This document shows positions 3,013 through 64,000 of a stretch of DNA of 64,000 nucleotides, piece by piece. The translations under genes were made by a program, and so were the position numbers. The notes under the pieces were generated by a model that saw nothing but the letters and a program-made list of their open reading frames with translations, ran no database searches and was not told the origin of the DNA. Origin of the DNA: Candidatus Omnitrophota bacterium (GTDB taxonomy: Bacteria; Omnitrophota; Gorgyraeia; S143-82); assembly GCA_015494585.1 (NCBI GenBank), contig WGAY01000064.1, forward strand, positions 16,976-80,975, written 5' to 3'. How positions within the stretch are numbered: the stretch's first letter is position 1; each line of letters opens with the position of its first letter.

Positions 3013-3887
3013 TGCCTAAGGTATCTCCGGAACACCTGGATGCCGTCTGCGAGATGGATAATATTACTCTCGGTGCAGCGGCCGTGAATCTTGAAAAACT
3101 AACTGGTATCCAGGTAAAAATGATAAAGCCAAAGGCCATTGAAACAGACTTTAAATCTGCCTTGGATTCTATTTCTGCTCAGGATAAAGTCTTCCTTTTA
3201 TTCAAGTATGATGAAGGTTATGGTCAAAGTTTTGCTCTGGTATTTTCTGAATCCGATGTATCAGTGCTAATTGAGAAACTTTCTCAATCTCTTGGCGAAA
3301 GTCTTGATCTGGAACAGGGTCTTATGAAAGTGGGAGAACAGGTGGCCCAGGCAATAGGGGATAGTCTTGCAATGCTTATTATGAATAAAAAGATAACATG
3401 TTCTCCTTATGCAGTTTCAAAAGAGGCGCCTAGCGAATTAGGGGATGAGATTGTGTTAGTTGAGATGCAGTTTAGGTTAAATGATGGACAAGTAAATTCT
3501 CTTTTTTGGCACATGCTTTCTGTTGATTTGGCTAATGGCCTTGCTGCAGATATGCTCGGGGAGATAGATGCTCAGCTTCAGGAATTTGAGCAAAAGGCAA
3601 GGCAGGACTCGAAAGAGGAGAAGAAAAAGACTGAGGATCTGATCAGTGTACCTGATATAATGGCAGAGATAAGGGTAAGGTTGGCTCAGAAGAAGATGCT
3701 TTTTTCTGAGTTGTGGGAATTAGGACCGGGAGCGGTTATTGAGTTCCCTCAATATATCTCTCAGCCAGTGGATGTTACTATGAAGGATAAGGTTATTGCT
3801 AAGGCACAGGTGGTTACGGTAGGTGAAAATTTTGGAGTAAGGATAACGGAGGTTAGGGATTATGCCAAAGATATTAGTAGTAGATGA
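3012..3887 (+). CDS. CheC-like phosphatase fused to a FliN/SpoA (surface presentation of antigens) domain, FliY-like
   Basis: N-terminus has a CheC-type motif (DNITLGAAAVNLEKLTG). C-terminus (AVIEFPQYISQPVDVTMKDKVIAKAQVVTVGENFGVRITEV) is a typical FliN/SpoA fold. Confidence 0.6.
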   Translation: MPKVSPEHLDAVCEMDNITLGAAAVNLEKLTGIQVKMIKPKAIETDFKSALDSISAQDKVFLLFKYDEGYGQSFALVFSESDVSVLIEKLSQSLGESLDLEQGLMKVGEQVAQAIGDSLAMLIMNKKITCSPYAVSKEAPSELGDEIVLVEMQFRLNDGQVNSLFWHMLSVDLANGLAADMLGEIDAQLQEFEQKARQDSKEEKKKTEDLISVPDIMAEIRVRLAQKKMLFSELWELGPGAVIEFPQYISQPVDVTMKDKVIAKAQVVTVGENFGVRITEVRDYAKDISSR

Positions 3888-4230
3888 TTCTGCAACAATT
3901 AGAAGAATTATAAAGAATACCCTAGAAAAGATAGGGTATTCGGAGGTAGTTGAGGCTGAAAATGGTATAGATGCCCTTACGAAACTAAAGGAAGGCGATA
4001 TTATCTTGGTCCTTACTGATTGGAATATGCCAGAGATGGATGGAATCACATTAGTGAAATCGATTCGTGCCTCTGATAAGTTTGGTACAGTCCCTATTAT
4101 CATGGTAACTACAGAGGCAGAAAAAAACGAAGTTATGGAGGCATTACAGTTGGGGGTTAATGACTATATTGTCAAACCTTTTACTCCGGATATTTTGAAA
4201 GAAAAAATAGAAAAGGTATTAAATGGTTAG
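3862..4230 (+). CDS. cheY: Chemotaxis response regulator CheY (second copy)
   Basis: 122 aa; VVDDS...DWNMPEMDG...KP receiver motifs. Overlaps the upstream gene by 26 nt. Confidence 0.85.
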   Translation: MPKILVVDDSATIRRIIKNTLEKIGYSEVVEAENGIDALTKLKEGDIILVLTDWNMPEMDGITLVKSIRASDKFGTVPIIMVTTEAEKNEVMEALQLGVNDYIVKPFTPDILKEKIEKVLNG

Positions 4231-4831
4231 GCGCCTGACAGTCCTTGTTATCTGCATATTGGGTCTCGGTATTGTAGGGGGCTGTGTTCGTGAGAAGATG
4301 GATCAATCCTTGCCTCTTCCAACGGCGCCAGATGTGAACTATGAGATTACTCATATTGCTGTACTTCCATTTGGCTCAGATAGTTCAGTTCCAGATGATG
4401 TTAGGGATAAGATCTATAGGGCATTTATAGATTACCTTATACCCCATAGGGGTGTATTCGTTGTCCATCCAGAGATAATATACCGCTTTGTCGATAAAGA
4501 TGCCCCTATCCTCGATGTAGAAAAGGCCGCAATGGTTGGAGATAAATTAGGAGTCAATGGTATAGTTATAGGTTACCTGTCAGATTATTCGGAAAATCCA
4601 TTTCGGATAACCATAGATGCAACTCTTTATCCTATGGTTAATGTCAATAACTATATTTGTACTGGGCACAAATCTTATGATCCGGAAGATATTTATGTCA
4701 TTGCTTCTATGAAGCAATATGCCTCTCGTTTTGAATGGAGTAAACTACCTCTGGGTTGGGAACGGATCAAACTGAATATAGATATTTTTTGTGACTTTGT
4801 GGCCTGGGATATGGTAAAATCTTTCTTTTAG
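4223..4831 (+). CDS. Putative lipoprotein of unknown function, translationally coupled to cheY
   Basis: Signal peptide with lipobox (LGIVGGC). The ATG sits inside the cheY stop region (AAATGGTTAG). No recognisable catalytic motif. Confidence 0.45.
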   Translation: MVRRLTVLVICILGLGIVGGCVREKMDQSLPLPTAPDVNYEITHIAVLPFGSDSSVPDDVRDKIYRAFIDYLIPHRGVFVVHPEIIYRFVDKDAPILDVEKAAMVGDKLGVNGIVIGYLSDYSENPFRITIDATLYPMVNVNNYICTGHKSYDPEDIYVIASMKQYASRFEWSKLPLGWERIKLNIDIFCDFVAWDMVKSFF

Positions 4832-4876
4832 AGGCTATTACAATTCCTTTAATTCAAAAATAAGCGAAGGGTTACG

Positions 4877-6079
4877 ATGAAGAAGCGGGATGTTTTTGAT
4901 TTTTATGGTCATTATATAATGAACACCTACACACGTAGTCCGGTTATCTTTGTGAAAGGCAAGGGATCGCGTTTATGGGATATAGACAATAAGGAATATA
5001 TAGATTTATTTCCGGGATGGGGGGTTTCTGTTTTGGGACATTGTCCGCCGGCGGTGGTAAATGCTATCAGATATCAAGCCAGCCGCCTTATCCACCTTCC
5101 TAATAATTTCCATCATATTTCACAGGCAAAATTGGCAAAGGAAATAGTAATGAGATTGGGTTTTCCTGCAAAGGTATTCTTTTGTAATTCAGGTGCAGAG
5201 GCAGTGGAGGCTGCCTTGAAGCTGGCCAAGGCATGGGGCCAGAGGAAGGGGAAGACTGAGATAATAACCACGGAAAACTCATTCCATGGCCGTACAACTG
5301 GAGCCCTTTCTCTTACAGGCCAGGATATTTATCAGCGGGGGTTTCACCCTCTACTTCCCAATGTGAAACGGGTAAAATTCAATGATATTTCGGCGATTAA
5401 GGAGGCTATTAGTCCTGAGACTGCAGCGATTATTCTTGAACTCATCCAGGGTGAGGGTGGAGTCAACGTGGCTGAAAAAAAATATGTAGAGGCATTGCGC
5501 AAGCTGTGTGATGAGAATGAAATATTGCTGATATTTGATGAGGTACAGACTGGTATAGGTCGTACTGGAAGGTGGTATTGTTTCCAGCATTACGGCGTGG
5601 AACCCGACATAATGACACTGGCAAAGGGCCTCGGCGGTGGTGTACCAATAGGTGCTATGGTGGCTAAGGATGAGATTGCTAAGGCCTTTAAACCAGGTAT
5701 GCATGCGTCTACCTTCGGAGGAGGTCCACTCGTTTGCAAGGCAGGGATTGCTGTATTTAGGACCATTCAGCGTCAACACCTACTGTCAAAGGTTCAGAAG
5801 ACTTCAGAAGAACTGAGGAATCGTTTCTTGGGATGGAAAAAAAGGTGGCCTGAGAAGGTACGAGATGTACGGGGTAAGGGTTATATGTTTGGTATAGAGC
5901 TTAGTTGCCCATGCCGCAAGATAGTGGAGACTGCTTTATCAAGGGGAATATTGGTGAACTGTACGCACAGCAATGTCCTCAGAATAATGCCAGCGCTTAA
6001 TATTAAGCCTAAATATTTGAATAAAGGATTATCTATACTAGAGGAGATATTAGAGGATGAATTTTCTAACCCTAAGTGA
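4877..6079 (+). CDS. argD: Acetylornithine aminotransferase (class III PLP aminotransferase)
   Basis: 400 aa. Class-III aminotransferase signature (GAEAVEAALKLA, DEVQTGIGRTG, TLAKGLGGG). Adjacent to argF. Confidence 0.8.
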   Translation: MKKRDVFDFYGHYIMNTYTRSPVIFVKGKGSRLWDIDNKEYIDLFPGWGVSVLGHCPPAVVNAIRYQASRLIHLPNNFHHISQAKLAKEIVMRLGFPAKVFFCNSGAEAVEAALKLAKAWGQRKGKTEIITTENSFHGRTTGALSLTGQDIYQRGFHPLLPNVKRVKFNDISAIKEAISPETAAIILELIQGEGGVNVAEKKYVEALRKLCDENEILLIFDEVQTGIGRTGRWYCFQHYGVEPDIMTLAKGLGGGVPIGAMVAKDEIAKAFKPGMHASTFGGGPLVCKAGIAVFRTIQRQHLLSKVQKTSEELRNRFLGWKKRWPEKVRDVRGKGYMFGIELSCPCRKIVETALSRGILVNCTHSNVLRIMPALNIKPKYLNKGLSILEEILEDEFSNPK

Positions 6080-6977
6080 TATAGATAAAGATATCTTGTG
6101 GGAGATATTGAAGAGAGCAAGAGTATTAAAGGAACTTCGGGAGCAGGGAATAAGCAGGCTTGATGTACTTTCTGGCAAGATCCTTGCCCTTATATTTGAG
6201 AAACCCTCTACCAGGACAAGACTTTCTTTTGAGACGGCAATATTGGAATTAAATGGAAGTGCAATCTTTATGGGGCCAAATGAAGTAGGACTGGGAAAGA
6301 GAGAGGCTATCTGTGATGTAGCAAGGACAGTAAGTCGTTATGTCCATGGGGTTGTACTGCGAACCTTTGCTCACAAGAACCTGTTGGAATTTGCAGATAA
6401 TGCAACCATTCCTGTAATAAATGCACTTACGGATAGTTTTCACCCATGTCAGGCCCTGGCGGATGTATTTACCATTTGGGAGAGATTTGAATCTTTGGAT
6501 AGAGTTAGGACCTGTTTTATTGGAGATGGCAATAATGTATTGAATTCGTTGTTATTGGCCTCTTCTATCTTTGGATTTCAGCTGGATTTCATTACTCCAA
6601 GCACACAAAGGCCAGCTAAAGATGTTTTGGATAGGGCCTCTGATTTGTCTATTAAGTATAATGGTCGGGTTGTCTTTAAGGAGTTGGATAATTTCAAAGC
6701 ACTTGGTAACTATGATGTGGTCTATACAGATGTGTGGGTAAGTATGGGACAGGAGGCAGAGGCCGAGATTAAGTTAAAGGATTTTATGGGATTTCAGGTA
6801 AATCAAGATTTATTGAGCAAATTAGGGCATCCTCTGGTTATGCATTGTTTACCTGCTCACAGGGGACAAGAGATTACAGATGAGGTTATAGATGGGCCGT
6901 ATTCGGTGGTATTCGATCAGGCAGAAAACAGGATGCATGTTCAAAAAGCGTTGTTGGAGTATATATGGAGAAGCTAG
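6057..6977 (+). CDS. argF: Ornithine carbamoyltransferase
   Basis: STRTR carbamoyl-phosphate motif, HCLP and DVWVSMGQE ornithine-binding motifs; 306 aa. Confidence 0.8.
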   Translation: MNFLTLSDIDKDILWEILKRARVLKELREQGISRLDVLSGKILALIFEKPSTRTRLSFETAILELNGSAIFMGPNEVGLGKREAICDVARTVSRYVHGVVLRTFAHKNLLEFADNATIPVINALTDSFHPCQALADVFTIWERFESLDRVRTCFIGDGNNVLNSLLLASSIFGFQLDFITPSTQRPAKDVLDRASDLSIKYNGRVVFKELDNFKALGNYDVVYTDVWVSMGQEAEAEIKLKDFMGFQVNQDLLSKLGHPLVMHCLPAHRGQEITDEVIDGPYSVVFDQAENRMHVQKALLEYIWRS

Positions 6978-7783: not shown

Positions 7784-7879
7784 GTGGAGCAATATAGGTC
7801 TGCTGGTAATCTCATTCTTAATGGCATTGTTGGTATGGTATTATGTAAATTTCAGGGTTATGAATCTGTGAGTTAAATT

Positions 7880-8722
7880 GTGATTTTATCCACTATGAAG
7901 ATCCGTCTGGTAGATTCTGAAAATGTCAAATCAATGATCCATAGCCTTTCCCAGCTTTCTATTTCTACTATATGCATTTCGGGTTCCTGTCCGAATAGAC
8001 CCTTGTGTTTTTCCTCTAAGAGGGTATCTGTGCTTATTCTTGGGCAGACCTGTACCAGGACCTGTAGGTTCTGTGGTGTTAGAAAGGCTGTAGAAGGGGA
8101 TAAAGATTTTTCCTATGAGATAGAAGCTATCTCTAATCTGGTGGAAAGGTTGGGCCTTGAGTTTTTAGTTATTACATCTGTAACTCGAGATGACCTGCCT
8201 GATTATGGAGCCGGGCACTTCATTGAGATAGTCAATATTTTAAAGCAAAGATATCCCTATTTAAAAATAGAGCTCTTGATTCCAGATTTTCTAAGCGATG
8301 AGAAGATTCTTCATAATATAGCATCCCTGAAGGTAGAAATTATAGGCCATAATATGGAGACAATTGAGAGACTCTATCCTATTATTCGCCCGTTATCGGA
8401 TTATAAGAGGTCTCTAAATGTTATAAGATTTCTTGCAGAACATTCTAGCGCTATGGTGAAGTCTTCTATAATGCTGGGGTTGGGTGAAGAGTTTTCAGAA
8501 ATAATGGGTGTATTAAGAGACATATACAATACTGGATGCCGAGCAATTTGTGTGGGGCAATATCTGCCGCCGAAAAATGGGCTTAATTATCCGGTATTAA
8601 AGTATTATAATGAAAAAGAGTTTTTGTATATCAGGGAAAGGGCATTAGAGATGGGTTTTACTTTTGTATGGTCAGGGCCATTTGTTAGAAGTAGTTTTGT
8701 AGGGGGGGATAGTGGCGACTAA
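7880..8722 (+). CDS. lipA: Lipoyl synthase (radical SAM)
   Basis: Auxiliary cluster motif CxxxxCPNxxxC (CISGSCPNRPLC) and radical-SAM CTRTCRFC. GTG start; the alternative ATG is at 7895. Confidence 0.7.
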   Translation: MILSTMKIRLVDSENVKSMIHSLSQLSISTICISGSCPNRPLCFSSKRVSVLILGQTCTRTCRFCGVRKAVEGDKDFSYEIEAISNLVERLGLEFLVITSVTRDDLPDYGAGHFIEIVNILKQRYPYLKIELLIPDFLSDEKILHNIASLKVEIIGHNMETIERLYPIIRPLSDYKRSLNVIRFLAEHSSAMVKSSIMLGLGEEFSEIMGVLRDIYNTGCRAICVGQYLPPKNGLNYPVLKYYNEKEFLYIRERALEMGFTFVWSGPFVRSSFVGGDSGD

Positions 8723-9698
8723 TGTACATCTAGACATAGGTTCTTCATCAGTGAAGGCAATGGTAGGAAGGCGTAAAGGTAGTAAATTTATTGTAGATGC
8801 AGTATCTATTGTAGGCTATGATACAGGCATAGATATATTTAAGAATCTATCTTCTGCGATAAAGGATGTCCTTTGGGAATTAGATATTAGACGGGCTGTC
8901 CTGAATGTCTCAATACCTTCTAGTTATTTTTTATTTAGGTATGCTAGTTTTCCCAATATACCCAAAAGGAAGTTAGAGGCAGTGGTCGTATCTGAGGCAT
9001 CTAGGTACATACCCAGCCGCATAAGAGATGCAATTATAGAAGCTGTTCCATTTGATGAGGGCAATCTTGTAAAGAGGCCGGTTTTGTTGGTGGCAATAGA
9101 TAGAGACGTCCTTATATCGTTTGAGAGGGCGATTTATACTGCTGGTTATAGGGCTAGACTGATAACTTTTGAGGCTGCATTGACCGCCAATTTGGTATCT
9201 CTTGTATATCCTTTAGAAGAGAAGCCTATATGTGTTGTGGATATAGGAAAGAGTTCGACAAATATAATGATATTGGATGAAGATAAGATAAATTTTATCC
9301 GCACGGTTATGATAGGTGGAGTGGATATAGATAACCTTATTAGAGATAGGCTGGATGTAGCAATAGATGTAGCCGAGACGATTAAAAAGGGAGAAAGTGC
9401 GGTTGCTGATGTAGTTACCCTTGCCAATAGGGTCTTGAATCATCTTGCCGATGAGATATATATTTCAGTTGACTATTATGAGAGCCAGTTCGGTGAAATG
9501 CCGGAAAAATTAATATTAACTGGAGGGAGCGCTAATTTAAGGGGGTTATTGGAATTTTTGGCAGATAGGTTGGACTTTGATATTCAGTTGCTTAATTTCC
9601 CTGAAAGCAGGCTCCTATCCTCGGATCCTGAAGTTCATAATTTTATTATTAGCCACTTACAAGAACTTATCCCTGTACTTGGAATGATGACCATATGA
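8712..9698 (+). CDS. pilM: Type IV pilus assembly protein PilM-like (actin-fold ATPase family)
   Basis: 328 aa. N-terminal [13 protein letters not shown] actin-like phosphate-1 motif and overall PilM-like size. No pilNOPQ follows. Confidence 0.55.
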
Positions 9699-10258
9699 TA
9701 GACAAAGAGAAGATACAAAAAGGAGTTAGGTTAATCCTGGAGGGTATAGGGGAGAACCCCGATAGGGCAGAGTTACTAAAGACCCCTCAACGAGTGGCGG
9801 ATATGTTTGAGGAGATATTCTCAGGTATAGGTGTTGATGCAGCCTCTGTTTTGGATGTTGCCTTGGAGGAACGGCACGACGAAATCGTACTCATAAGGGA
9901 TATATCTTTCCATTCAATGTGTGAACATCACCTCTTGCCGTTTATGGGCAGGATTCATATAGCCTATCTGCCTGGTGGGGGCAGAATTGCTGGTTTGAGT
10001 AAAATAATAAAAGTGGCTGAACTTTTTTCAAAAAGACCTCAATTACAGGAGAGACTTACTACACAGATTGCTGAGAGCATAGAAACCAGATTAAGACCCA
10101 TTGGTGTAATGGTGGTCATAGAGGCAGAGCATTTGTGTATGAGTATGAGGGGCGTAAAGAAACCAGGCTCTTTGGTTATTACCAGCGCAGTAAGGGGCAT
10201 CTTTAGAGAGAATGAAAAAACCCGCAATGAGGTATTGAGCCTTTTAATCAGGAGGTGA
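9695..10258 (+). CDS. folE: GTP cyclohydrolase I
   Basis: 187 aa. Conserved [12 protein letters not shown] zinc/active-site motif and RPQLQERLT segment. Confidence 0.85.
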
Positions 10259-11511: not shown

Positions 11512-12023
11512 GGTATATAGTATTGATTATATTTTCGGTAATGCTTAGTTTCGGGATATTTCTGCGGCTTGCTTATGGACAGGTCCTGGATGACAGGATA
11601 AAGGCCCCTGAGTTTCGTTTATCTCCTGTCAATGTCCAGACGGTGCAAGATTGTATCATCGGCAAGGCCCTTGAGGACAAGGAATTTACTGTAATATTGT
11701 TCTGGACGACCTGGTGTCCACATTGTGCAAGGGCAATCGTTGATGTTAACGATTATAATAGCCAATATGGAAACAAGGTAAAGTTTTGTGGCGTTGCCTT
11801 AGAGCAGGATGTGGGAAAGGTAAGAAATTACCTTAAGGCCAGGGGGATAACCTTTCCTGTAGGGATAGATAGAGATGGAGTTATTGGATATATGTACGGA
11901 ATTCGTGGTGTACCTACAATAGTTGTTATAGATAAAGATGGATATGTCTTTGACTATGGATTTAGTATCAGGGGTATAATGAATCGAATAATCAGCAAAT
12001 TGGGCCAGACGAAAAATAATTAG
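11505..12023 (+). CDS. TlpA/ResA-like membrane-anchored thioredoxin (thiol:disulfide oxidoreductase)
   Basis: N-terminal anchor and WCPHC active site. Directly follows ccdA with a 7-nt overlap. Confidence 0.65.
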   Translation: MVRYIVLIIFSVMLSFGIFLRLAYGQVLDDRIKAPEFRLSPVNVQTVQDCIIGKALEDKEFTVILFWTTWCPHCARAIVDVNDYNSQYGNKVKFCGVALEQDVGKVRNYLKARGITFPVGIDRDGVIGYMYGIRGVPTIVVIDKDGYVFDYGFSIRGIMNRIISKLGQTKNN

Positions 12024-12036
12024 GTAAATCTAAACT

Positions 12037-13599
12037 ATGCAGTATAAAGTAGAACTTTACGACACAACCTTAAGAGATGGCTCTCAGAGTGAAGGGGTTT
12101 CTTTCTCTGTAGAGGATAAGTTGAGGATTACAAAGAAACTCGATGAGCTTGGTATACATTATATAGAAGGTGGATGGCCTGGCTCTAACCCAAAGGATAT
12201 GGAATATTTTAAAAGGGTTAAAAGCCTGCCTCTCAAATCTACAAAGGTTGTTGCCTTTGGCTCTACACGAAGGGCTGACAATCCTGCTAGTAAAGACAGA
12301 AACCTAAAAGCATTCTTGCAAAGCGGGGTGGAAATAGTAACCATCTTTGGCAAGACCTGGGATCTGCATGTGAAAGACGTATTTAAGATATCCCTGTCTG
12401 AAAATTTGAAGATGATAGAGGATTCTATAAGATACTTGGTCCGCCATGATATCAGGGTTTTTTACGACGCAGAGCACTTTTTCGATGGATACAAGGACAA
12501 TCCTGGTTACGCCCTTGATACCTTGAAAGCCGCTGAAGAAGCCGGGGCCGAGATAATTGTGCTTTGCGATACCAACGGTGGAACCTTACCTTCAGAAGTG
12601 GTTAATATAATAAATGAAGTAAAGGCAAAGCTTTCTGTCCCTATTGGAATACACGCCCACAATGATTGTGGGCTTGCAGTAGCTAATTCCATTGCTGCGG
12701 TTGAATGCGGTGCTATGCAGGTGCAGGGGACGATGAATGGTTATGGCGAACGTTGCGGGAATGCCAATCTTACCACGATTATCGGTGTGCTTGGCGCGAA
12801 GTTAAAGGTCCCTACCATCAAGAAGCGAACCCTGGCCAGACTCACGGAAGTGAGCCATTTCATAGCAGAGGTGGCTAATATGCAGCTGCCCAATAACCAT
12901 CCTTTTGTGGGCAGGAGTGCCTTTGCCCATAAAGGTGGTGTGCACATAAACGCAGTAATGAAAAATCCTCGCACGTATGAACACATCAATCCAGAAGTTG
13001 TGGGTAATGAAAGGCGCATACTGGTCTCTGAATTGGCGGGCAGGTCCTCCTTATCGGTGCGTGCTAAGGAGATGGATATAGAATTAGATAGAAAGTCACC
13101 AGAAGCAGATAAGGTTATGGCCTTGCTCCAGCGTCTGGAGTATGAGGGTTATCATTTTGAGGTGGCAGAGGCATCTTTTAAGGTCTTGCTGCATCGAGAA
13201 GTAAAAAAGAGAACTCCATTTTTTGATTTGCTTGGGTTTAGGGTAATAGTTGAGAAACGTAAAGATGGAGAGATCCTGACAGAGGCCACTGTCAAGATAA
13301 AGGTAAAGGATAAGGTCGAATATACAGTAGCCGAAGGGGATGGTCCGGTTAATGCCCTCGATTTTGCCCTCAGACAGGCCTTGAAAAAATTCTATCCACA
13401 GATAGAAGATATGCACTTGACTGATTTTAAGGTCAGAGTCCTTGACGGTAGTGAAGGAACGGCTGCAAAGGTCAGGGTCTTGATACAGTCTCAGGATAGC
13501 AAAGAATCTTGGACAACTATAGGTGTTTCAGAGAATATCATAGAGGCATCTTGGCAGGCCTTGATCGATAGTGTTGAATATAAACTTATTAAAGGGTAA
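12037..13599 (+). CDS. Citramalate synthase / 2-isopropylmalate synthase family (LeuA/CimA, with C-terminal regulatory domain)
   Basis: 520 aa. [24 protein letters not shown] metallolyase start, HAHND and HxH motifs, C-terminal LeuA-dimer domain. The size fits CimA better than LeuA. Confidence 0.75.
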
Positions 13600-56331: not shown

Positions 56332-57210
56332 ATGCGCATAACTGTACTGGGGGCCGATGGCCAGCTCGGGACGGATGTCCTTGATTTGCTTTCGAAGGAT
56401 TTGCCTGTCAACGGCCTTACAAGAGAGGACTTTGATGCCACTGATAGGGATGTCTTTAGACAGCTGAGGCCGCTTTTGGAGAATAGCGATATAGTGATAA
56501 ACTGTGTCGCCTATACGGATGTCGACAGGGCAGAAGAGGAGGAGGCCCTGGCCTATAGGCTAAATGCAGAATTCCCTAAGGGTCTGGCAAAAATATTGGG
56601 GAGCTCTAATAAGCTATTATTTCACATAAGCACTGATTATGTCTTTTCAGGACGTTTGGGGCGGCCTTATAGAGAAGATGATACTCCTGATCCGATCAAT
56701 GTTTACGGGAAGACAAAGCTGGCAGGTGAAAGGGCCGTCTTGAGCTTATGTCCCAGACACTTTATATTTAGGACGGCTGGTTTGTTTGGTAAGGCAGGGC
56801 CAAGCGGCAAATCAGGCAATTTTATAGACACGATAATAAAGCTCGCCAGAGAAAGGGCTTTGCTAAAGGTCGTTGATGATCAGCTAACCAGTCCCACCCA
56901 TACCTTGGATGTGGCCAGGGCAATAAAAGTCTTTATTGAAAAGGGTGTTGGAGAATACGGAATATTTAATGTGGTAAGCAGTGGATATTGTTCGTGGTAT
57001 AAATTAGCGAATTATATTGTGCAGCGGCTTGGCATAGAGACGCAGGTTGTTCCGGTCTCTTCGGACGAGTTTCCCAGACCAGCAGCCAGACCGAAGTTTT
57101 CTGCCCTTGATAATTCGAAGGTATCGAAATGGTATAATATGCCTTACTGGCAGGATGCAGTAGAGGAGTATCTCAGGATAAAGATGTTGCTGCCGAAAGG
57201 AGAGAGATAG
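56332..57210 (+). CDS. dTDP-4-dehydrorhamnose reductase-like NAD(P)-dependent epimerase/reductase (RmlD family)
   Basis: MRITVLGADGQLG Rossmann start; size and YxxxK region typical of RmlD. ATG 56332 preferred over the track start at 56305. Confidence 0.65.
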   Translation: MRITVLGADGQLGTDVLDLLSKDLPVNGLTREDFDATDRDVFRQLRPLLENSDIVINCVAYTDVDRAEEEEALAYRLNAEFPKGLAKILGSSNKLLFHISTDYVFSGRLGRPYREDDTPDPINVYGKTKLAGERAVLSLCPRHFIFRTAGLFGKAGPSGKSGNFIDTIIKLARERALLKVVDDQLTSPTHTLDVARAIKVFIEKGVGEYGIFNVVSSGYCSWYKLANYIVQRLGIETQVVPVSSDEFPRPAARPKFSALDNSKVSKWYNMPYWQDAVEEYLRIKMLLPKGER

Positions 57211-58017: not shown

Positions 58018-59106
58018 ATGGATGGATTGTTCAGGATCATAGATGCCAATATCAATAGGGCGCAAGAGGGCCTCAGGGTAATTGAGGATTTCTATCGTTA
58101 CCGATTTGACGAGGAGGATAAAGAGGCCCATAAGAGGCTGCGCACCCTGCGTCACAGGTTCTCAGAGGTTGCAAGGTCCCTGACAGAGTCCTACCCACTC
58201 CTGAAAGAGAGGGATACGGATTCGGATGAGGGCAGGTCTAATAGCATTTCTTCCTATCGAGAGAAATCTGATCTGGTTTATGCCAATTTTCAGAGGGTTA
58301 AGCAGGCATTGCGGGTTATCGAGGAGGCTATGCGGCTTGTGCCTGATATAGGTGCCTCAGAGCTGGTGCGGGAGATTCGATTTCTTGTCTACGATTTGGA
58401 GAGAGAGCTGCTGGGGGCGGATATCGATAGCAGTGGCCTGGATAGGAGGGGATTGTTGCGCAAGACAGAGGGCACCGTTAGGCTATATCTTATATATGAT
58501 CTTGACCTACTTAAGGGGATGGGCGTTGAGAATAAGAGGCTGTATGGGTTTGCTAGGGAATTATTAGAGGCAGGAGTCGATATCCTTCAGCTCCGCTTTT
58601 CATCGGATATAGATGATGCCCTGGTACTGGATCTGGCGAAGGCGCTGGTGGCTATGACCGAGGGGACAGATAGGCTTATTTTCGTAAATAATCGTGCGGA
58701 TATAGCCAGGCTCTCTGCTGCGAACCTCCACATCGGCCAGAGGGACATTCCCCCTGCCGATGCAAGGAGGATAGTCTCTGAGACAACGCTGATAGGGCTT
58801 TCCTGTCATTCAGATGAAGAGATATTGAAGGCCCAGGAATTGCCTGTAGATTATTTTACTATTGGACCTATATTCAAAACGGCTACTAAACCGGATTACA
58901 AACCAGTAGGGATTAAGTTGGTGGAAAGGTGGCATAGATTAGAGAAACCCTTTGTCGTAATAGGTGGCATAACACTGGAAAATCTTTCCCCTATATTGGA
59001 GTTTGGTCCAATGGCAGTGTGCGTGTGCAGGGATATACTCTGCGCCGAGGATCCGCTTGTCAGGGTGAGGCAGTATAAGGCAGTGCTTTCCTCGATTGAA
59101 AAATAG
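58018..59106 (+). CDS. thiE: Thiamine-phosphate synthase with about 150-aa N-terminal extension of unknown function
   Basis: The C-terminal 210 aa carry the ThiE/TMP-TENI fold (LIGLSCHSDEE, GPIFKTATKPD, VVIGGI). The N-terminal 150 aa are helical and charged. Confidence 0.65.
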   Translation: MDGLFRIIDANINRAQEGLRVIEDFYRYRFDEEDKEAHKRLRTLRHRFSEVARSLTESYPLLKERDTDSDEGRSNSISSYREKSDLVYANFQRVKQALRVIEEAMRLVPDIGASELVREIRFLVYDLERELLGADIDSSGLDRRGLLRKTEGTVRLYLIYDLDLLKGMGVENKRLYGFARELLEAGVDILQLRFSSDIDDALVLDLAKALVAMTEGTDRLIFVNNRADIARLSAANLHIGQRDIPPADARRIVSETTLIGLSCHSDEEILKAQELPVDYFTIGPIFKTATKPDYKPVGIKLVERWHRLEKPFVVIGGITLENLSPILEFGPMAVCVCRDILCAEDPLVRVRQYKAVLSSIEK

Positions 59107-59118
59107 TCTATTTTTTGT

Positions 59119-59146
59119 TTGACATCCAATGCCCTGTGTGTAAAAT
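59119..59146 (+). promoter_or_regulatory. Near-consensus sigma70 promoter for the Mrp/Mbh-type operon
   Basis: TTGACA (59119-59124), 16-nt spacer, TAAAAT (59141-59146); 32 nt upstream of the first gene. Confidence 0.55.
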
Positions 59147-59178
59147 AAGATAAATTTTCGGAGAGCAGGGGAACGTTT

Positions 59179-59511
59179 ATGGTGATTAAGTTTGTGATAT
59201 TTTTCCCAATCTACCTGATAGTCTTGCTCATAGAGATGCTAAGGGCAAATCTAGATGTAGCAATGCGGGTCATTAACCCTTCTCTGCCGATAAATCCCGG
59301 TATTGTTGAATTTAAGACAACATTAAAGTCCGATCTTTTGAAATTTATATTGGCAAATTCCATTACCCTGACGCCAGGTACGCTCACAATGGATGTGAAG
59401 GATAACTCTTTTTTCGTACACTGGATAGATGTAAAGGGGAATTCCGGAGATGACTATAGGCGTGCCATCTGTGGCAGGCTTGAGTCGATATTGAAGAGGA
59501 TAGAAGGATGA
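59179..59511 (+). CDS. Na+/H+ antiporter subunit E-like (MrpE/MnhE/MbhA-like)
   Basis: 110 aa; N-terminal TM helix and conserved NLDVAMRVINPSLPINPGIVEF segment of MrpE. Confidence 0.7.
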   Translation: MVIKFVIFFPIYLIVLLIEMLRANLDVAMRVINPSLPINPGIVEFKTTLKSDLLKFILANSITLTPGTLTMDVKDNSFFVHWIDVKGNSGDDYRRAICGRLESILKRIEG

Positions 59512-59747
59512 GTGCATTTCTGATAATAGTAACCATTGGCGTTGTGTTTGCTGGCCTGCGTTTTATTTTGGGGCCGCGGTTTTTCGATAGGATGGTGGCT
59601 GTAGATATCCTGACTACTATACTGGTATCAGCAATGGTGGTCCTGGCGGTTGTGCTGGGTGAGAGGATATTTCTGGATGTGGCGCTGGCGCTGGCAGCCG
59701 TGTCTTTTGTGGCGATGGTTGTGTTGGGAAGGTTTATCGAGGGATGA
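59508..59747 (+). CDS. Antiporter subunit F-like (MrpF/MnhF)
   Basis: 79 aa with three short TM helices; position after the E-like gene. Confidence 0.65.
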   Translation: MSAFLIIVTIGVVFAGLRFILGPRFFDRMVAVDILTTILVSAMVVLAVVLGERIFLDVALALAAVSFVAMVVLGRFIEG

Positions 59748-60055
59748 ATACGATAGGTAATGTGTTGATTATCATAGGCGGCCTATTTATGGCGCTTTCT
59801 GGTTTGGGGATACTTCGTATGCCAGATGTCTACAACCGCCTTCAGGCTGGTACGAAGGCCTCTACCCTGGGTGCGATATGTACGGTTGTTGGGGTTATGT
59901 TTTTGAGGCCAGGGTGGTGGCTGGAGTTGCTGGTGGTGCTTATTTTGCTTTTGTTGGGCGCGCCAGTGGCATCTTCGGTATTGGCTAGGGCGGTCCACTC
60001 AGAGACCGACTACAAAGCAGTGCTGGTAAAAGATGATCTAAAGGAGAAGGAATAA
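59744..60055 (+). CDS. Antiporter subunit G-like (MrpG/MnhG)
   Basis: 103 aa. LSGLGILRMPDVYNRLQAGTKASTLG motif typical of MrpG. Confidence 0.7.
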   Translation: MNTIGNVLIIIGGLFMALSGLGILRMPDVYNRLQAGTKASTLGAICTVVGVMFLRPGWWLELLVVLILLLLGAPVASSVLARAVHSETDYKAVLVKDDLKEKE

Positions 60056-60279
60056 TGCCTTATCTGGATGTAGTGGTGATAGTGTTAACGGGTATCTTTG
60101 CAGGGATAGCGGTCCTCTCAACGAGCCGCATTACTGCTGTGCTTTCCCTGGCGGTAATGAGCATAGGGTTGACCGCCAGCTTCTATCTCCTGCAGGCCCC
60201 TGATGTGGCTATGGCCGAGGCAGTAGTAGGGGCAGGGCTCTCTACGGGTCTGTTTTTATTTGCTATAAGGAGACTGTGA
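60055..60279 (+). CDS. Small membrane subunit, MrpB N-terminal-domain-like (MbhD-like)
   Basis: 74 aa, two TM helices; precedes the MrpB-like gene. Confidence 0.5.
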   Translation: MPYLDVVVIVLTGIFAGIAVLSTSRITAVLSLAVMSIGLTASFYLLQAPDVAMAEAVVGAGLSTGLFLFAIRRL

Positions 60280-60989
60280 TGCTGGAGGGGATGAATAGGA
60301 AGTACAACATATCTGGGATAATAGCAATTCTTGGGGTGATTTTTTTCTGCGGCACATTGGCAAAGCTGCTCTATACCGAGGTCCCCTTTGGAAAGGATAA
60401 AATGAATGTGGCCAAGGAATATGTAAAGATGGGCGCAAACTCCACGGGTGCCCAGAATATGGTTACCTCTGTAGTCCTTTCTTTCAGGGCATTGGACACG
60501 CTGGGCGAGGTGACTGTATTGTTTGCCTCTTCTATGGCAGTCGGCCTCTTGCTCCTGCCGGGTGGGATTATGTGGCGGAGGAAAGAGAATTTTGTCCTCG
60601 CATTTGCGAGCAAGTGGATGCCCTACCTCATAGGACTTATCGGTATCTATATCGTCCTTCAGGGACATCTGACACCAGGGGGAGGATTCCAGGGAGGTGT
60701 TATTATCGCAACCGGTATAATGCTCTATTTCCTGCTTTCAGGGGTAGAGATGAAGAGGGATAGGCTGGTCCATATCCTGGAGGCCCTTATGGGTGCGGGA
60801 TTCGTTGGCATTGGTCTCTGGGGCCTCTATAAGAATGGTTCGTTCTTGTATAATTTTCTCCCTCAGGGCAAGGTGGGCGAATTATTTAGCGCAGGTATAC
60901 TGCCTATGCTATATATATTGATAGGGATAAAGGTGGCGAGTGAATTTACGGCTATACTGGCCAGGTTTACCAGCAAGAACGAGGAATAG
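60276..60989 (+). CDS. Antiporter subunit B-like (MrpB/MnhB/MbhE-like)
   Basis: 237 aa polytopic membrane protein. GANSTGAQNMVTSVVLSFRALDTLGEVTVLF resembles MnhB. Confidence 0.65.
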   Translation: MMLEGMNRKYNISGIIAILGVIFFCGTLAKLLYTEVPFGKDKMNVAKEYVKMGANSTGAQNMVTSVVLSFRALDTLGEVTVLFASSMAVGLLLLPGGIMWRRKENFVLAFASKWMPYLIGLIGIYIVLQGHLTPGGGFQGGVIIATGIMLYFLLSGVEMKRDRLVHILEALMGAGFVGIGLWGLYKNGSFLYNFLPQGKVGELFSAGILPMLYILIGIKVASEFTAILARFTSKNEE

Positions 60990-60991
60990 CT

Positions 60992-61348
60992 ATGAATCTG
61001 GACTTTTATGCATTATCCATATTTTTGATAGGCGCAGGGTTGGCAGGAATATTCCTTAACCGGGATTTTGTAAAGATTCTGGTCAGCATATCTGTACTGG
61101 AGTCAGGGGTCAATCTGTTGCTTATAAGCATTGGTTATGTCCAGGGGAGACTGGCGCCGATATTGTTTTCGCAAGAATTAAAGGCCTCAGCAGTAGGCAA
61201 GGTGGTCGATCCGGTTCCTCAGGCGCTTGTGCTTACGGCGATTGTTATAGGCCTTGGCTTGTTGGCCTTTGGATTGTCCCTGGCGATATGGATGGCAAAG
61301 AACTTCGAGACAACCGATGTCTCTGAACTCAAGAGATTAAGAGGGTAG
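60992..61348 (+). CDS. Antiporter subunit C-like (MrpC / NuoK family)
   Basis: 118 aa, three TM helices. LESGVNLLLIS motif typical of NuoK/MrpC. Confidence 0.75.
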   Translation: MNLDFYALSIFLIGAGLAGIFLNRDFVKILVSISVLESGVNLLLISIGYVQGRLAPILFSQELKASAVGKVVDPVPQALVLTAIVIGLGLLAFGLSLAIWMAKNFETTDVSELKRLRG

Positions 61349-61350
61349 TT

Positions 61351-62817
61351 ATGGAGAAGTTTCTCGTGCTTGTATTCGTTTTACCGCTTATTGCGGGATT
61401 TGTTTCCTATATAGCTGGTTTAAAGGGGAATCACCTTTCTAAGATATTTACGGCCATTGTACTTTTGACCAATCTTGTCCTTAGTTATAAGATCTTCAAA
61501 TATGTAATGGCCTCTGCAGACAATCGCATCATTGCCGTGTTTTCAGGGTGGATGCCGCCCCTTGGTATAAACTTTTATGCAGATAGTATAGCGGTTATAT
61601 TCTTACTGTTTGCGAATCTATTGGCCTTTGCCTCATTATTCAGTGCAAAGCTCAGCTATTCGAATAGATTCCATGGCCTGATATTGCTCCTTACCGCGGC
61701 ATTAAATGGCCTGATATTAAGCGGCGATATATTCAATATATTCGTCTTTTTTGAGATACTCTGCCTTGTTTCGTTTGCCCTGGTTGCCTATTACAGGAAA
61801 GCGGAGTCCATAGAGGCCTCTGTAAAGTATTTCGTCCTGGGCAGCATTGCCTCAGCGATGCTCTTGATAGGGATTGCCCTTATATATGCTAAGACCGGCA
61901 CCCTCAATTTGGCCCAGATTGCAGATATGGCGCCTCAGTGGAGTGGATTGTTCAAGGCGGTTGTATTTGGGCTCCTACTGGTTGGTTTTGGGGTGGAGGC
62001 CGGCATCTTTCCGATGAATGCCTGGCTCTTCGATGCCCACCCAGCCGCCCCTTATCCGGTTTCTGCACTGCTTTCTGGGATTGTGATAGAGGTGGCACTC
62101 TATTTATTCTTGAGGATAAAATCTCTATTTTTTGTGGATCCTTTATTCAGTCTCGTTTTGTTACTCCTGGGTCTGGTTACCTTTGCTGTTTCAGAACTGG
62201 TGGGCTTTTATCAGAGGGATGTAAAGAGATTGCTTGCCTATTCATCGGCAGGCCAGATAGGGCTTATGCTTATGGCCTTTTCTCTGCCCACAAAGATAGG
62301 GATGTTTGCAGGGCTGTTGTTGTTTATAAATCACCTGTTGGCAAAGGGCCTTCTGTTTATATCGGTTGGCTCGATGTCTGATAGATCAGGGGACAGAGAT
62401 ATAGATAGGTTTTCAGAATCTGCCAGTTTTGTTGATAAGGTCGCAGTCCTGGCAGGGGGGCTTTCTCTCCTGGGCGTGCCACCCTCTATTGGATTTATGG
62501 GCAAGGTCCTCCTGTTCATTGCCCTGGTAAAGGCAGGATTCCTTGCCTTTGCTCTATGCCTTATTCCTTTCGTTGTACTGGAGGCCCTTTATGTGATGCG
62601 TCTAGTAGGCCGTACCCTTGCCTCCAGTGGAGATGGCCGTATAGAATGCCCTGGACAGGTCGTTGTGCAGTGGGTATTTACCTTTATCATAATTGTATTA
62701 CCCATTATCGTCAGCAGGATGTCTATTCAGACAGATAAGCTGAACCTAAATGGGTTTAATAAACAGGACTATCTCTATGGGATGGCTTCTCAGCTATTAA
62801 AAGGAGACAGGTTATGA
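61351..62817 (+). CDS. Proton/cation-translocating antiporter-like subunit (MrpD / NuoN-M family)
   Basis: 488 aa with about 14 TM helices; conserved NuoL/M/N-type core. Confidence 0.8.
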   Translation: MEKFLVLVFVLPLIAGFVSYIAGLKGNHLSKIFTAIVLLTNLVLSYKIFKYVMASADNRIIAVFSGWMPPLGINFYADSIAVIFLLFANLLAFASLFSAKLSYSNRFHGLILLLTAALNGLILSGDIFNIFVFFEILCLVSFALVAYYRKAESIEASVKYFVLGSIASAMLLIGIALIYAKTGTLNLAQIADMAPQWSGLFKAVVFGLLLVGFGVEAGIFPMNAWLFDAHPAAPYPVSALLSGIVIEVALYLFLRIKSLFFVDPLFSLVLLLLGLVTFAVSELVGFYQRDVKRLLAYSSAGQIGLMLMAFSLPTKIGMFAGLLLFINHLLAKGLLFISVGSMSDRSGDRDIDRFSESASFVDKVAVLAGGLSLLGVPPSIGFMGKVLLFIALVKAGFLAFALCLIPFVVLEALYVMRLVGRTLASSGDGRIECPGQVVVQWVFTFIIIVLPIIVSRMSIQTDKLNLNGFNKQDYLYGMASQLLKGDRL

Positions 62818-64000
62818 TGTTGCTCGATATGATAAAGGCAGACAACCTTGCTTTCTTCTTTTCTGTACTAACAATAGGATTCTTCGTTGCCAATACTATA
62901 TTTCTGATATTTTCAGGAATAAAGAAAGGAATTGTATTAAATACAATCCTTAGCCTATTTTTAACGATGGTCTTGCTGATGCTCTACGCCACACACAATA
63001 TCGTGATATTCTTCGCCCTCTGGGAGATGGCCACCTGGTTGACCTATCTTTTGGCAAACAACCCCAAAAAGTCCAGTAAATACCTTTGGGCATCGCTTCT
63101 GGCCGAGTTCTTTATGCTTATCGCAGTGGCAAGGACAGTGGCCTATGGTTCATATGACATTGCAATGGTAGCTCATGTGGATCCGCTGAATCTTATAATG
63201 TTCTGTCTGCCGTTTATCGTAAAAAGCGGGATACTTCCATTTAACTTCTGGGTGACAGACCTTTACACGGGTTCAGATAAAAGATTTGTTGCCTATTTAT
63301 CCGCTATTATCGGCAAACTGGGTATCTTTGGCATTTTGCGGGTATTCCTATTGAGCCCTGGCCTTATTCCTGAATGGTTTATCTATACATTTATTTATCT
63401 GGCCGGCATCACTGCTGTTTGGGCCACCTTTAAGGCCGTTGGGAGCGAGGATGCAATTGAGTCTCTTTCCTTTTCAAGTCTCTCTCAAGTTGCATTTATC
63501 TTCGCCTCTGTATTATTAATGAATAAATCCGCCCTGATAGGTGGGTTGGTCCATTATCTGAATCATATGTTGATAAAGATGGGGATGTTTATGGCAGTCG
63601 TATACATATGGGCCAAGACCGGTACTACTGAATTCAAACGCTTGGGAGACTTTGTGTCGAAGATGCCCTTTAGCTTTCTGTTCTTCCTTATGCTTGGAAT
63701 ATCCCTGGCAGGTGTTCCGCCCATGGGAGGTGTTATATCCAAGTGGTTTATGTACGAAGGATTCATCGAAGAGTCAAAGTTATTGGCGGTCTTGTTGTTC
63801 TTCGTGGCCGGGGTAGGCTCGTTCCTTTATGTCTATCGACTCCTTCATTCTATATTTTTGGGAAGAAAGAAGCCAAGTATAGGCCTGGTAAGTGAGATGA
63901 ATATACTGGCCATACTCCCCCTGGCGGCGAGCGCGCTTATCAGCTTCCTTATCGGGGTATATAGCAGGCCGTTTATCCGTTTTGCTGCAAAGGCCCTAGG
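62814..64000 (+). CDS. Second antiporter-like subunit (MrpD/MrpA / NuoL-M family), 3' end outside the window
   Basis: ATGATG start overlapping the previous stop. The frame is open to the window end with repeated TM helices; absent from the track because no stop lies within the window. Confidence 0.7.
   Translation, partial: MMLLDMIKADNLAFFFSVLTIGFFVANTIFLIFSGIKKGIVLNTILSLFLTMVLLMLYATHNIVIFFALWEMATWLTYLLANNPKKSSKYLWASLLAEFFMLIAVARTVAYGSYDIAMVAHVDPLNLIMFCLPFIVKSGILPFNFWVTDLYTGSDKRFVAYLSAIIGKLGIFGILRVFLLSPGLIPEWFIYTFIYLAGITAVWATFKAVGSEDAIESLSFSSLSQVAFIFASVLLMNKSALIGGLVHYLNHMLIKMGMFMAVVYIWAKTGTTEFKRLGDFVSKMPFSFLFFLMLGISLAGVPPMGGVISKWFMYEGFIEESKLLAVLLFFVAGVGSFLYVYRLLHSIFLGRKKPSIGLVSEMNILAILPLAASALISFLIGVYSRPFIRFAAKAL

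Follow-up and report, generated by a model that had tools for sequence, protein, structure and literature searches.

Does an operon of Mrp-like genes in an uncultured bacterium encode a plain Na+/H+ antiporter, or do its products form the ion-pumping arm of an energy-converting redox complex? This question is raised by a stretch of 64,000 nucleotides from a Candidatus Omnitrophota bacterium (GenBank assembly GCA_015494585.1, contig WGAY01000064.1, positions 16,976 to 80,975 of the forward strand; here called the window), which closes with eight genes related to those of Mrp antiporters. The initial annotation of these genes, made from the window alone, had proposed a membrane arm of the Mbh/Mbx type and had left the decision to the genes further downstream. 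We found that NuoH-, NuoB-, NuoC-, NuoD-, and NuoI-like genes follow and that the cluster very probably encodes a complex of the Mbx/MBS type, the eight window genes being predicted to form its membrane arm (subunits A, B, C, D, E, G, H, and H′). These genes would then form the pump of an energy-converting redox complex and not a stand-alone antiporter, and the complex is a candidate chemiosmotic energy-conserving site for this probable Omnitrophota bacterium.

The membrane-arm genes are eight consecutive open reading frames (ORFs) on the plus strand between positions 59179 and 64000, each of which has a significant Pfam match (Table 1). Their assignment to Mrp-like families, as initially proposed, was borne out by these matches and by the NCBIfam model TIGR01300, against which subunit C scores 75.4 bits (cutoff, 63.1). 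The genes are tightly packed: neighbors overlap by 4 nt at four of the seven junctions and by 1 nt at a fifth, and they are separated by 2 nt at the other two. The proposed order E-F-G-B′-B-C-D-D′, unlike the mrpABCDEFG order, was also recovered, with pieces of the MrpA C-terminal region lying between G and B and with no MrpA fusion; subunit D is the counterpart of part of this region. The window ends, as had been noticed, inside the second large subunit, H′, which is cut at residue 395 of 528, the full length being known from the contig described below.

The genes beyond the window were read from contig JALUKU010000019.1 (assembly GCA_027101535.1; here called the proxy contig), which was found through an identical 488-amino-acid (aa) subunit H; an exact look-up with the 237-aa subunit E returned no contig. 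Over the 3.5 kb that correspond to window positions 60479 to 64000, the two sequences are 99.57% identical, with 15 mismatches and no gaps. On the proxy contig, H′ is followed by a NuoH-like gene (M, 298 aa), a NuoB-like gene (J, 181 aa), a NuoC-like gene (K, 164 aa), a NuoD-like gene (L, 369 aa), and a gene for a 601-aa protein, N, which contains the NuoI-like domain; these genes overlap or are closely spaced. The same layout was found in three further independent assemblies (four in all), which gives a cluster of 13 genes in the order A-B-C-D-E-G-H-H′-M-J-K-L-N, eight from the window and five from the proxy contig and the three other assemblies. All five types of gene for which the downstream region was to be inspected, namely, NuoB-, NuoC-, NuoD-, NuoH-, and NuoI-like, are present on the proxy contigs, and they decide between a plain antiporter and the arm of a redox complex in favor of the latter. 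H′ is followed neither by unrelated genes nor by an MrpA-type fusion that would complete an antiporter; unrelated or housekeeping genes (hisB, an epimerase, fructose-bisphosphate aldolase, and Mla/ABC genes) are found only beyond N.

The kind of complex was read from direct observations on gene content and order, family membership, and the conservation of cofactor-ligand, active-site, and pump residues. When seven subunits were compared with solved structures, the Pyrococcus furiosus MBS (6U8Y) was the best match to every one of them, with wide margins over MBH, Mrp, and complex I. (i) Among the hydrophilic and NuoH-like subunits, L matches MbsL with 297 bits (2.2e-87), followed by Thermus Nqo4 (212 bits) and MbhL (132 bits); J matches MbsJ with 212 bits (4.4e-62), followed by NDH NdhK (124 bits), NuoB-type subunits of complex I (approximately 100 to 112 bits), and MbhJ (94 bits); and M matches MbsM (5.6e-50) ahead of MbhM (7.5e-23). 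(ii) Of the antiporter-type subunits, H is closest to MbsH (6U8Y_H, 3.6e-68), with MbhH (2.8e-48) and MrpD (5.4e-44) next, and the full-length H′ of the proxy contig matches MbsH′ (6U8Y_X, 3.4e-33) in an alignment that reaches residue 613 of 618 and spans the C-terminal extension. (iii) E matches the 235-aa MbsE (6U8Y_E, 8.9e-39), followed by MbhF (3.3e-14) and MbhE (3.4e-7), and residues 8 to 120 of N match MbsN (1.5e-30). The presence of two large subunits, H and H′, together with a fused MbhE+F-type subunit indicates Mbx/MBS rather than Mbh, and the Mbh/Mbx-type arm of the initial annotation is thereby narrowed to Mbx/MBS, in agreement with the downstream NuoH/B/C/D/I-like genes.

The residues around the predicted active site agree with this assignment. 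In the Pyrococcus MBS, the proximal cluster of MbsJ is held by C28, C93, and C123; the CxxC loop has three residues fewer than that of MBH, and C25 is displaced as a result. MbsL retains two of the four Ni-Fe cysteines, C85 and C385 (PMC7684303). J aligns without gaps to residues 10 to 168 of MbsJ, has a CxxC loop of the MbsJ length, and keeps the motifs CTGCG, GSC, and AGCMPRPEA, which contain the equivalents of C25, C28, C93, and C123. L retains RICVPEPD and the C-terminal CPPEIDR, which contain the equivalents of C85 and C385, and lacks the N-terminal [NiFe] CxxC. We compared this signature among eight bacterial operons, namely, that of the window proxy, that of a close relative (locus L007, CAYXYY010000038.1), four Caldisericum-type loci, and those of Thermosipho (L016) and Marispirochaeta (L017). 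The three ligand cysteines of J and C67 of L (the C85 equivalent) were invariant in all eight, and C363 of L (the C385 equivalent) was present in seven. Substitutions were seen at two positions, the equivalent of the nonligand C25 being Gly in the J subunit of Thermosipho and the C385 equivalent being Tyr in the L subunit of Marispirochaeta; all other signature cysteines of J and L were invariant. This pattern fits a predicted three-Cys, site-differentiated proximal cluster of the MBS type as a conserved functional element.

Subunit H conserves the equivalents of MbsH E138, E219, K338, and the Lys of transmembrane helix 12, which are invariant across the bacterial homologs. At the positions of MbsH K250 and H330, the subunit has Glu and Leu, and the bacterial homologs vary between Thr, Val, or Phe at the first and Gln or Leu at the second. 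In H′, the equivalents of MbsH′ E128, K217, K248, and the His of transmembrane helix 11 are conserved. Two subunits are short in both the window and L007: A has 110 aa, compared with 160 to 168 aa in Caldisericum, Thermosipho, and Marispirochaeta, and H′ has approximately 525 to 528 aa, compared with 614 to 630 aa in the same three. The missing parts are N-terminal transmembrane helices, which in H′ amount to approximately 85 to 100 residues. The first three helices are also missing from metazoan ND2, so that the shortness of H′ need not abolish its function.

A difference from the Pyrococcus MBS lies in subunit N. Its NuoI-like domain, with two [4Fe-4S] sites, is followed by C-terminal Fer4_20 and Pyr_redox_2 domains of the GltD/NfnB type, and this flavoprotein part has two more [4Fe-4S] sites, a flavin adenine dinucleotide (FAD) site, and an NAD(P)H site. 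The C-terminal approximately 445 residues match NfnI/NfnB large subunits with E values of 4.8e-73 (NfnI large subunit) and 3e-72 and match GltD with 4.2e-54. In an alignment of 40 diverse homologs (40 to 81% identity), all 16 cluster cysteines were invariant, i.e., eight in the NuoI-like domain and eight in the Fer4_20 domain, and the glycines of the FAD and NAD(P)H motifs GxGxxG and GGGNVAMD were invariant or nearly so. The structure was predicted with AlphaFold2 for a homolog that is 95% identical to N (P0001), which gave a predicted local distance difference test score (pLDDT) of 87 and a predicted template modeling score (pTM) of 0.83. The best fold match of this model was the large subunit of P. 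furiosus NfnI (template modeling [TM] score of 0.87 on the target; root mean square deviation of 2.6 Å), and the identities in the fold comparison were 35% with the NfnI large subunit and 30% with GltD. None of the solved chains searched with the model combines both halves of N. At the loci examined, no gene for an NfnA/NfnS-like partner ([2Fe-2S] plus a second FAD) was found in or beside the operon, so that, of an NfnAB transhydrogenase, the large-subunit-like domain is present and the small-subunit gene is not seen there; a GltB partner gene does not accompany N either.

To place the locus among its relatives, genome contigs were scanned with the single N protein, and 10 loci were returned. 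Judged by NCBI titles, on which the taxonomy given here is based, the nearest homologs of N belong to metagenome-assembled genomes (MAGs) titled Candidatus Omnitrophota (95% and 75% identity) and to one Planctomycetia-titled MAG (81%), followed by Caldisericaceae (46 to 49%). L007 is titled "uncultured Planctomycetia," the other close relatives of the window and proxy set are titled Omnitrophota, and one of the labels is probably wrong. Fusion proteins of approximately 600 aa, aligned at 98% coverage, are widespread and were found, among others, in Thermosipho (45% identity over 98% of the length), Marispirochaeta, Planctomycetota, KSB1, WOR-3, Cloacimonetes, and Methylococcales, as well as in the Caldisericum loci, and the fusion gene stands last in an operon of the same 13 genes in Thermosipho ferrireducens, Marispirochaeta aestuarii, a Methylococcales MAG, and Caldisericum. 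Several variations of the layout were observed. H and H′ are fused into one protein in M. aestuarii (1,112 aa) and in the Methylococcales MAG (1,040 aa), and in Thermosipho the gene next after the fusion gene encodes a rubrerythrin-like protein, which has no counterpart in the Omnitrophota-type loci. One Candidatus Omnitrophota MAG (locus L008, WGBD01000004.1) carries a 75%-identical NuoI-NfnB fusion gene whose flanks are free of mbx genes for 10 kb in both directions; its neighbors are an LGT-family gene and a formate-tetrahydrofolate ligase gene. This leaves two readings, a split operon in that genome or a different partner for the fusion protein.

Complexes of this kind have been discussed under several names. 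The mbx-like operons described in Thermotogae and other bacteria have a gltD-related flavoprotein in place of NuoI, often followed by rubrerythrin, and this flavoprotein was proposed as the site of NAD(P)+ reduction (PMC4758237); the Thermosipho locus shows exactly this arrangement, rubrerythrin included. The Mbx of Mesotoga prima (Theba_1796-1808) has been treated as an NADP:ferredoxin oxidoreductase (bioRxiv 10.1101/322537). The Pyrococcus enzyme is a ferredoxin-dependent sulfane reductase, and an earlier ferredoxin:NADP+ idea was replaced by this role (PMC7684303). For Thermotoga maritima, a "13-subunit MBX" was proposed to reduce sulfur, and its mbxA was induced 4.4-fold by S0 (PMC9431562), an indirect sign of ferredoxin-dependent sulfane reduction coupled to ion translocation. 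In Omnitrophota MAGs, similar clusters have been annotated as "group 4g hydrogenase, Mrp-linked" (PMC8542988). Our literature search found no paper linking Omnitrophota with Mbx, and a search for an Mrp-based ion-translocating ferredoxin:NADH oxidoreductase found only mentions of Rnf.

Taken as a whole, we consider it fairly probable that the locus encodes a 13-subunit bacterial respiratory complex of the Mbx/MBS type that works in the following way. Electrons would enter from NAD(P)H at the FAD of N, possibly also from ferredoxin at the clusters of N, and would pass along the four [4Fe-4S] clusters of this subunit to the proximal cluster in J. The latter cluster, predicted to have only three obligatory Cys ligands as in the Pyrococcus MBS, would face a chamber formed by J, L, and M together with a loop of H′, and a sulfane-sulfur (polysulfide-type) acceptor would be reduced there. 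M and the charged axis that runs through H′ and H would couple this reduction to the pumping of H+ and to Na+/H+ exchange in the Mrp-like distal module. Electron donor and acceptor, the direction in which electrons flow, and the ion are inferred. A broader proposal, which we regard as tentative and rather doubtful, is that the fused NfnB-like domain turns the complex into a pyridine-nucleotide-driven MBS, in which an NAD(P)H dehydrogenase module would have been placed on a complex I-type Q module and pump in a second, independent way, by analogy with NuoEFG. Such an enzyme would act either as an ion-pumping NAD(P)H:sulfane-sulfur oxidoreductase or on NAD(P)H and ferredoxin in a reversible or bifurcating manner, and it would occur widely among anaerobic bacteria from many phyla, Omnitrophota among them.

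A number of points weigh against a sulfane-reducing complex driven by NAD(P)H. (i) The genes M-J-K-L-N are known from near-identical contigs and lie outside the window itself. (ii) The standard potentials are approximately -320 mV for NAD(P)H and approximately -260 mV for polysulfide, which leaves little energy for two pumps unless cellular ratios shift these potentials. (iii) The equivalents of MbsH K250 and H330 are missing from the bacterial H subunits, so that pumping or its stoichiometry may differ from that of MbsH. (iv) The fused protein may also act elsewhere, since the fusion gene of L008 stands apart from mbx genes. (v) The literature search found no biochemical characterization, whether of activity, substrate, or ion, for any bacterial member. 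(vi) In older literature, Mbx and mbx-like complexes have been assigned the role of a ferredoxin:NAD(P)+ oxidoreductase in which the gltD-like subunit reduces NAD(P)+ (PMC4758237; bioRxiv 10.1101/322537).

This last assignment defines the alternative that survives best, although we judge it unlikely: the same complex would be an ion-translocating ferredoxin:NAD(P)+ oxidoreductase, comparable to Rnf, in which ferredoxin reduces the clusters of N and NAD(P)+ is reduced at the fused GltD/NfnB-like domain. Electron transfer from ferredoxin to NAD(P)+ releases more energy than that from NAD(P)H to polysulfide, and because the standard potentials favor this alternative, we give the NAD(P)H-to-sulfane direction somewhat less than an even chance. 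The invariant conservation of the NAD(P)H/FAD domain is also in line with it, as is the literature on bacterial mbx-like operons (PMC4758237; 10.1101/322537). Such a path, however, would bypass the junction of J, L, and M, which is the coupling point in all complex I-type enzymes (PMC7684303), and the proximal-cluster ligands and the vestigial cysteines of L are nonetheless conserved across phyla. In addition, the analogous original idea for the Pyrococcus Mbx gave way to ferredoxin-dependent sulfane reduction, and T. maritima mbxA responds to S0. We rank this alternative below the sulfane-reducing complex because the conserved coupling site would be bypassed and the Pyrococcus idea was abandoned.

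A second alternative, which appears quite improbable, is flavin-based bifurcation or confurcation, in which the NfnB-like FAD would split or merge electrons among NAD(P)H, ferredoxin, and the membrane-coupled acceptor site. By both sequence and fold, the fused domain is closer to the large subunits of bifurcating NfnB/NfnI than to GltD, but an NfnA/NfnS-like partner was absent in or next to the operon at any locus examined, a partner encoded elsewhere being possible, and only one chain of clusters leaves the flavin. A quinone-reducing, simplified enzyme of the complex I/NDH-1 type is highly improbable and was rejected. NuoB/C/D/H/I/K-like and antiporter-like subunits are common to both types of complex, and L scores well against Thermus Nqo4, as given above; against this stand the replacement of the quinone-site residues of Nqo4 in the L alignment (His38 by Ala19 and Tyr87 by Val68), the Mrp-type distal module, and the lack of NuoA and NuoJ homologs in the operon in Pfam searches of the window and proxy genes.

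The two remaining alternatives deserve next to no credence. One is a plain Na+/H+ antiporter of the Mrp type in which the gene order has changed. All eight window genes do match Mrp/Mnh/Pha families, but this reading was rejected: there is no MrpA-type fused subunit, the overlapping genes run directly into the NuoH/B/C/D/I-like genes in four assemblies, and all seven subunits compared are nearer to MBS chains than to Mrp chains. A membrane-bound group 4 [NiFe] hydrogenase (Mbh/Ech), which would be in keeping with the resemblance of the gene order to mbhA-N and with the group 4g, Mrp-linked annotation of Omnitrophota clusters (PMC8542988), was also rejected. The hydrogenase large subunit that the initial annotation had considered as a possible downstream gene is not there: the NuoD-like L has no [NiFe] cysteine pairs, and the complex is for this reason not a hydrogenase. 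The L1 motif RxCGxCxxxH is replaced by GPNHPGAAGN, which removes the N-terminal CxxC, the L2 motif DPCxxCxxH/R is reduced to one Cys, so that one Cys is left per vestigial motif, and L is far closer to MbsL than to MbhL by bit score (297 versus 132); there are also two large antiporter subunits instead of one.

The near-consensus promoter that had been noted ahead of the genes stood up to inspection. The sigma-70-like motif lies in the 72-nt gap after the thiD2-thiE gene, and no other site between positions 57000 and 64000 (7 kb) matches as well. In L007, whose mbx operon proteins are 66 to 89% identical to the window and proxy set, both hexamers are found with equal spacing upstream of the MrpE gene and with a different spacer sequence. 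The conservation of hexamers and spacing despite the different spacer supports a real promoter, and the operon is apparently transcribed from this one putative site.

The gene directly upstream encodes a ThiD2-ThiE (TMP-TENI) fusion and is preceded by genes for Fpg/MutM, an RmlD-like reductase, and a weakly matching NIF3/DUF34-like protein, none of them functionally linked to the complex. The window is bacterial in content, with separate rpoB and rpoC, EF-G/EF-Tu, MreB, PBP2, Fpg, and CheA, and it also carries tRNA-Thr, tRNA-Trp, and a long ribosomal-protein region. All credible ORFs of at least 150 aa between positions 1 and 64000 are on the plus strand, the four ORFs on the minus strand overlapping longer plus-strand ones, and the GC skew is positive in every 2-kb bin across the window (+0.06 to +0.37).

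Table 1. Features of the window and of related loci referred to in the text
Feature	Sequence	Coordinates	Strand	Match or remark
ThiD2-ThiE (TMP-TENI) fusion gene	Window	58018..59106		
Sigma-70-like promoter motif, TTGACA, 16 nt, TAAAAT	Window	59119..59146	+	11/12 match; hexamers TTGACA 59119-59124 and TAAAAT 59141-59146
Subunit A (MrpE/MbsA-like), 110 aa	Window	59179..59511	+	Pfam MNHE 7.7e-32, model positions 41-145 only
Subunit B (MrpF/MbsB-like), 79 aa	Window	59508..59747	+	Pfam MrpF_PhaF 1.7e-13; 4-nt overlap with A
Subunit C (MrpG/MbsC-like), 103 aa	Window	59744..60055	+	Pfam PhaG_MnhG_YufB 1.6e-22
Subunit D (MbhD/MbsD-like), 74 aa	Window	60055..60279	+	Pfam MbhD 1.9e-16
Subunit E (fused MbhE + MbhF/MrpB, as MbsE), 237 aa	Window	60276..60989	+	Pfam MbhE 1.9e-8 and MnhB 2.7e-21
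Subunit G (MrpC/NuoK/MbsG-like), 118 aa	Window	60992..61348	+	Pfam Oxidored_q2 1.4e-22
Subunit H (MrpD/MbsH-like, antiporter type), 488 aa	Window	61351..62817	+	Pfam Proton_antipo_M 4.5e-56
Subunit H′ (MbsH′-like, second antiporter type)	Window	62814..64000	+	Pfam Proton_antipo_M 2.4e-27
Counterpart of short subunit A	L007	1671-1997		
Counterpart of short subunit H′	L007	5339-6910		
NuoI-NfnB fusion gene	L008	9992-11809		
Subunit J	L016 (Thermosipho)	7838-8380		C25 equivalent is Gly
Rubrerythrin-like gene	L016 (Thermosipho)	11862-12374		
Fused H + H′	L017 (Marispirochaeta aestuarii)	3142-6480		
Subunit L	L017 (Marispirochaeta aestuarii)	8762-9982		C385 equivalent is Tyr

The role of the flavoprotein is a question that concerns the whole bacterial family and not this locus in particular. 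The identity of donor and acceptor would tell whether a pyridine-nucleotide module joined a complex I ancestor more than once, and it would improve metabolic reconstructions, in which such clusters are now labeled Mrp, hydrogenase, NADH dehydrogenase, or glutamate synthase small chain.

Each of the known systems shares a part of this complex. The Mrp (Mnh/Pha) antiporters (7D3U, 6Z16, and 7QRU) have homologous E, F, G, B, C, and D subunits, presumably with the same ion paths, but they stand alone, in the order A to G and with a fused MrpA, whereas the genes described here are part of a redox operon and closer to MBS chains. The large subunits of NfnAB/NfnI and the GltD family (5JCA_L, 4YLF_B, and 6S6S_G) share with the C-terminal part of N the fold, the motifs for FAD and NAD(P)H, and eight cysteines for two [4Fe-4S] sites; in N, a NuoI-like ferredoxin domain precedes this domain in one fused chain, which is encoded in the operon of a membrane complex, with no NfnA/NfnS or GltB gene. 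The MBH of P. furiosus (6CFW) likewise combines an Mrp-like membrane module, with genes A to G in the same order, with the NuoH/B/C/D/I-like subunits that follow it; it differs in having one antiporter-like subunit, separate MbhE and MbhF, an additional MbhI, an MbhL with four Ni-Fe cysteines, and an MbhJ whose CxxC loop is longer.

The closest structural counterpart is the MBS of P. furiosus (formerly Mbx; PMC7684303), with which the cluster shares the number of 13 genes and their order throughout, the fused MbhE+F-type E, two antiporter-like subunits, the C-terminal extension of H′, the length of the CxxC loop of J with the equivalents of the three ligand cysteines, the C85 and C385 equivalents of L, and the lack of Ni-Fe ligands. 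Differences are seen in N, which is extended by the NfnB/GltD-like domain, MbsN having 208 aa and being reduced by ferredoxin; in the N-terminally shorter A and H′; in the nonconserved K250 and H330 of MbsH; and in the host, which is here a bacterium, probably mesophilic. The MBX of Thermotogae (T. maritima, Mesotoga prima, and Thermosipho) has the 13-gene layout, the Cys signatures, and also the NuoI/gltD-like last subunit; the present cluster comes from a host of a different phylum, to judge from the nearest MAGs, labeled Candidatus Omnitrophota, has no rubrerythrin gene after N, and, compared with Thermosipho, has a shorter A (110 versus 160 aa) and H′ (528 versus 614 aa). With this locus, the bacterial "mbx-like" kind, already described but biochemically uncharacterized, gains a further member, probably from Omnitrophota.

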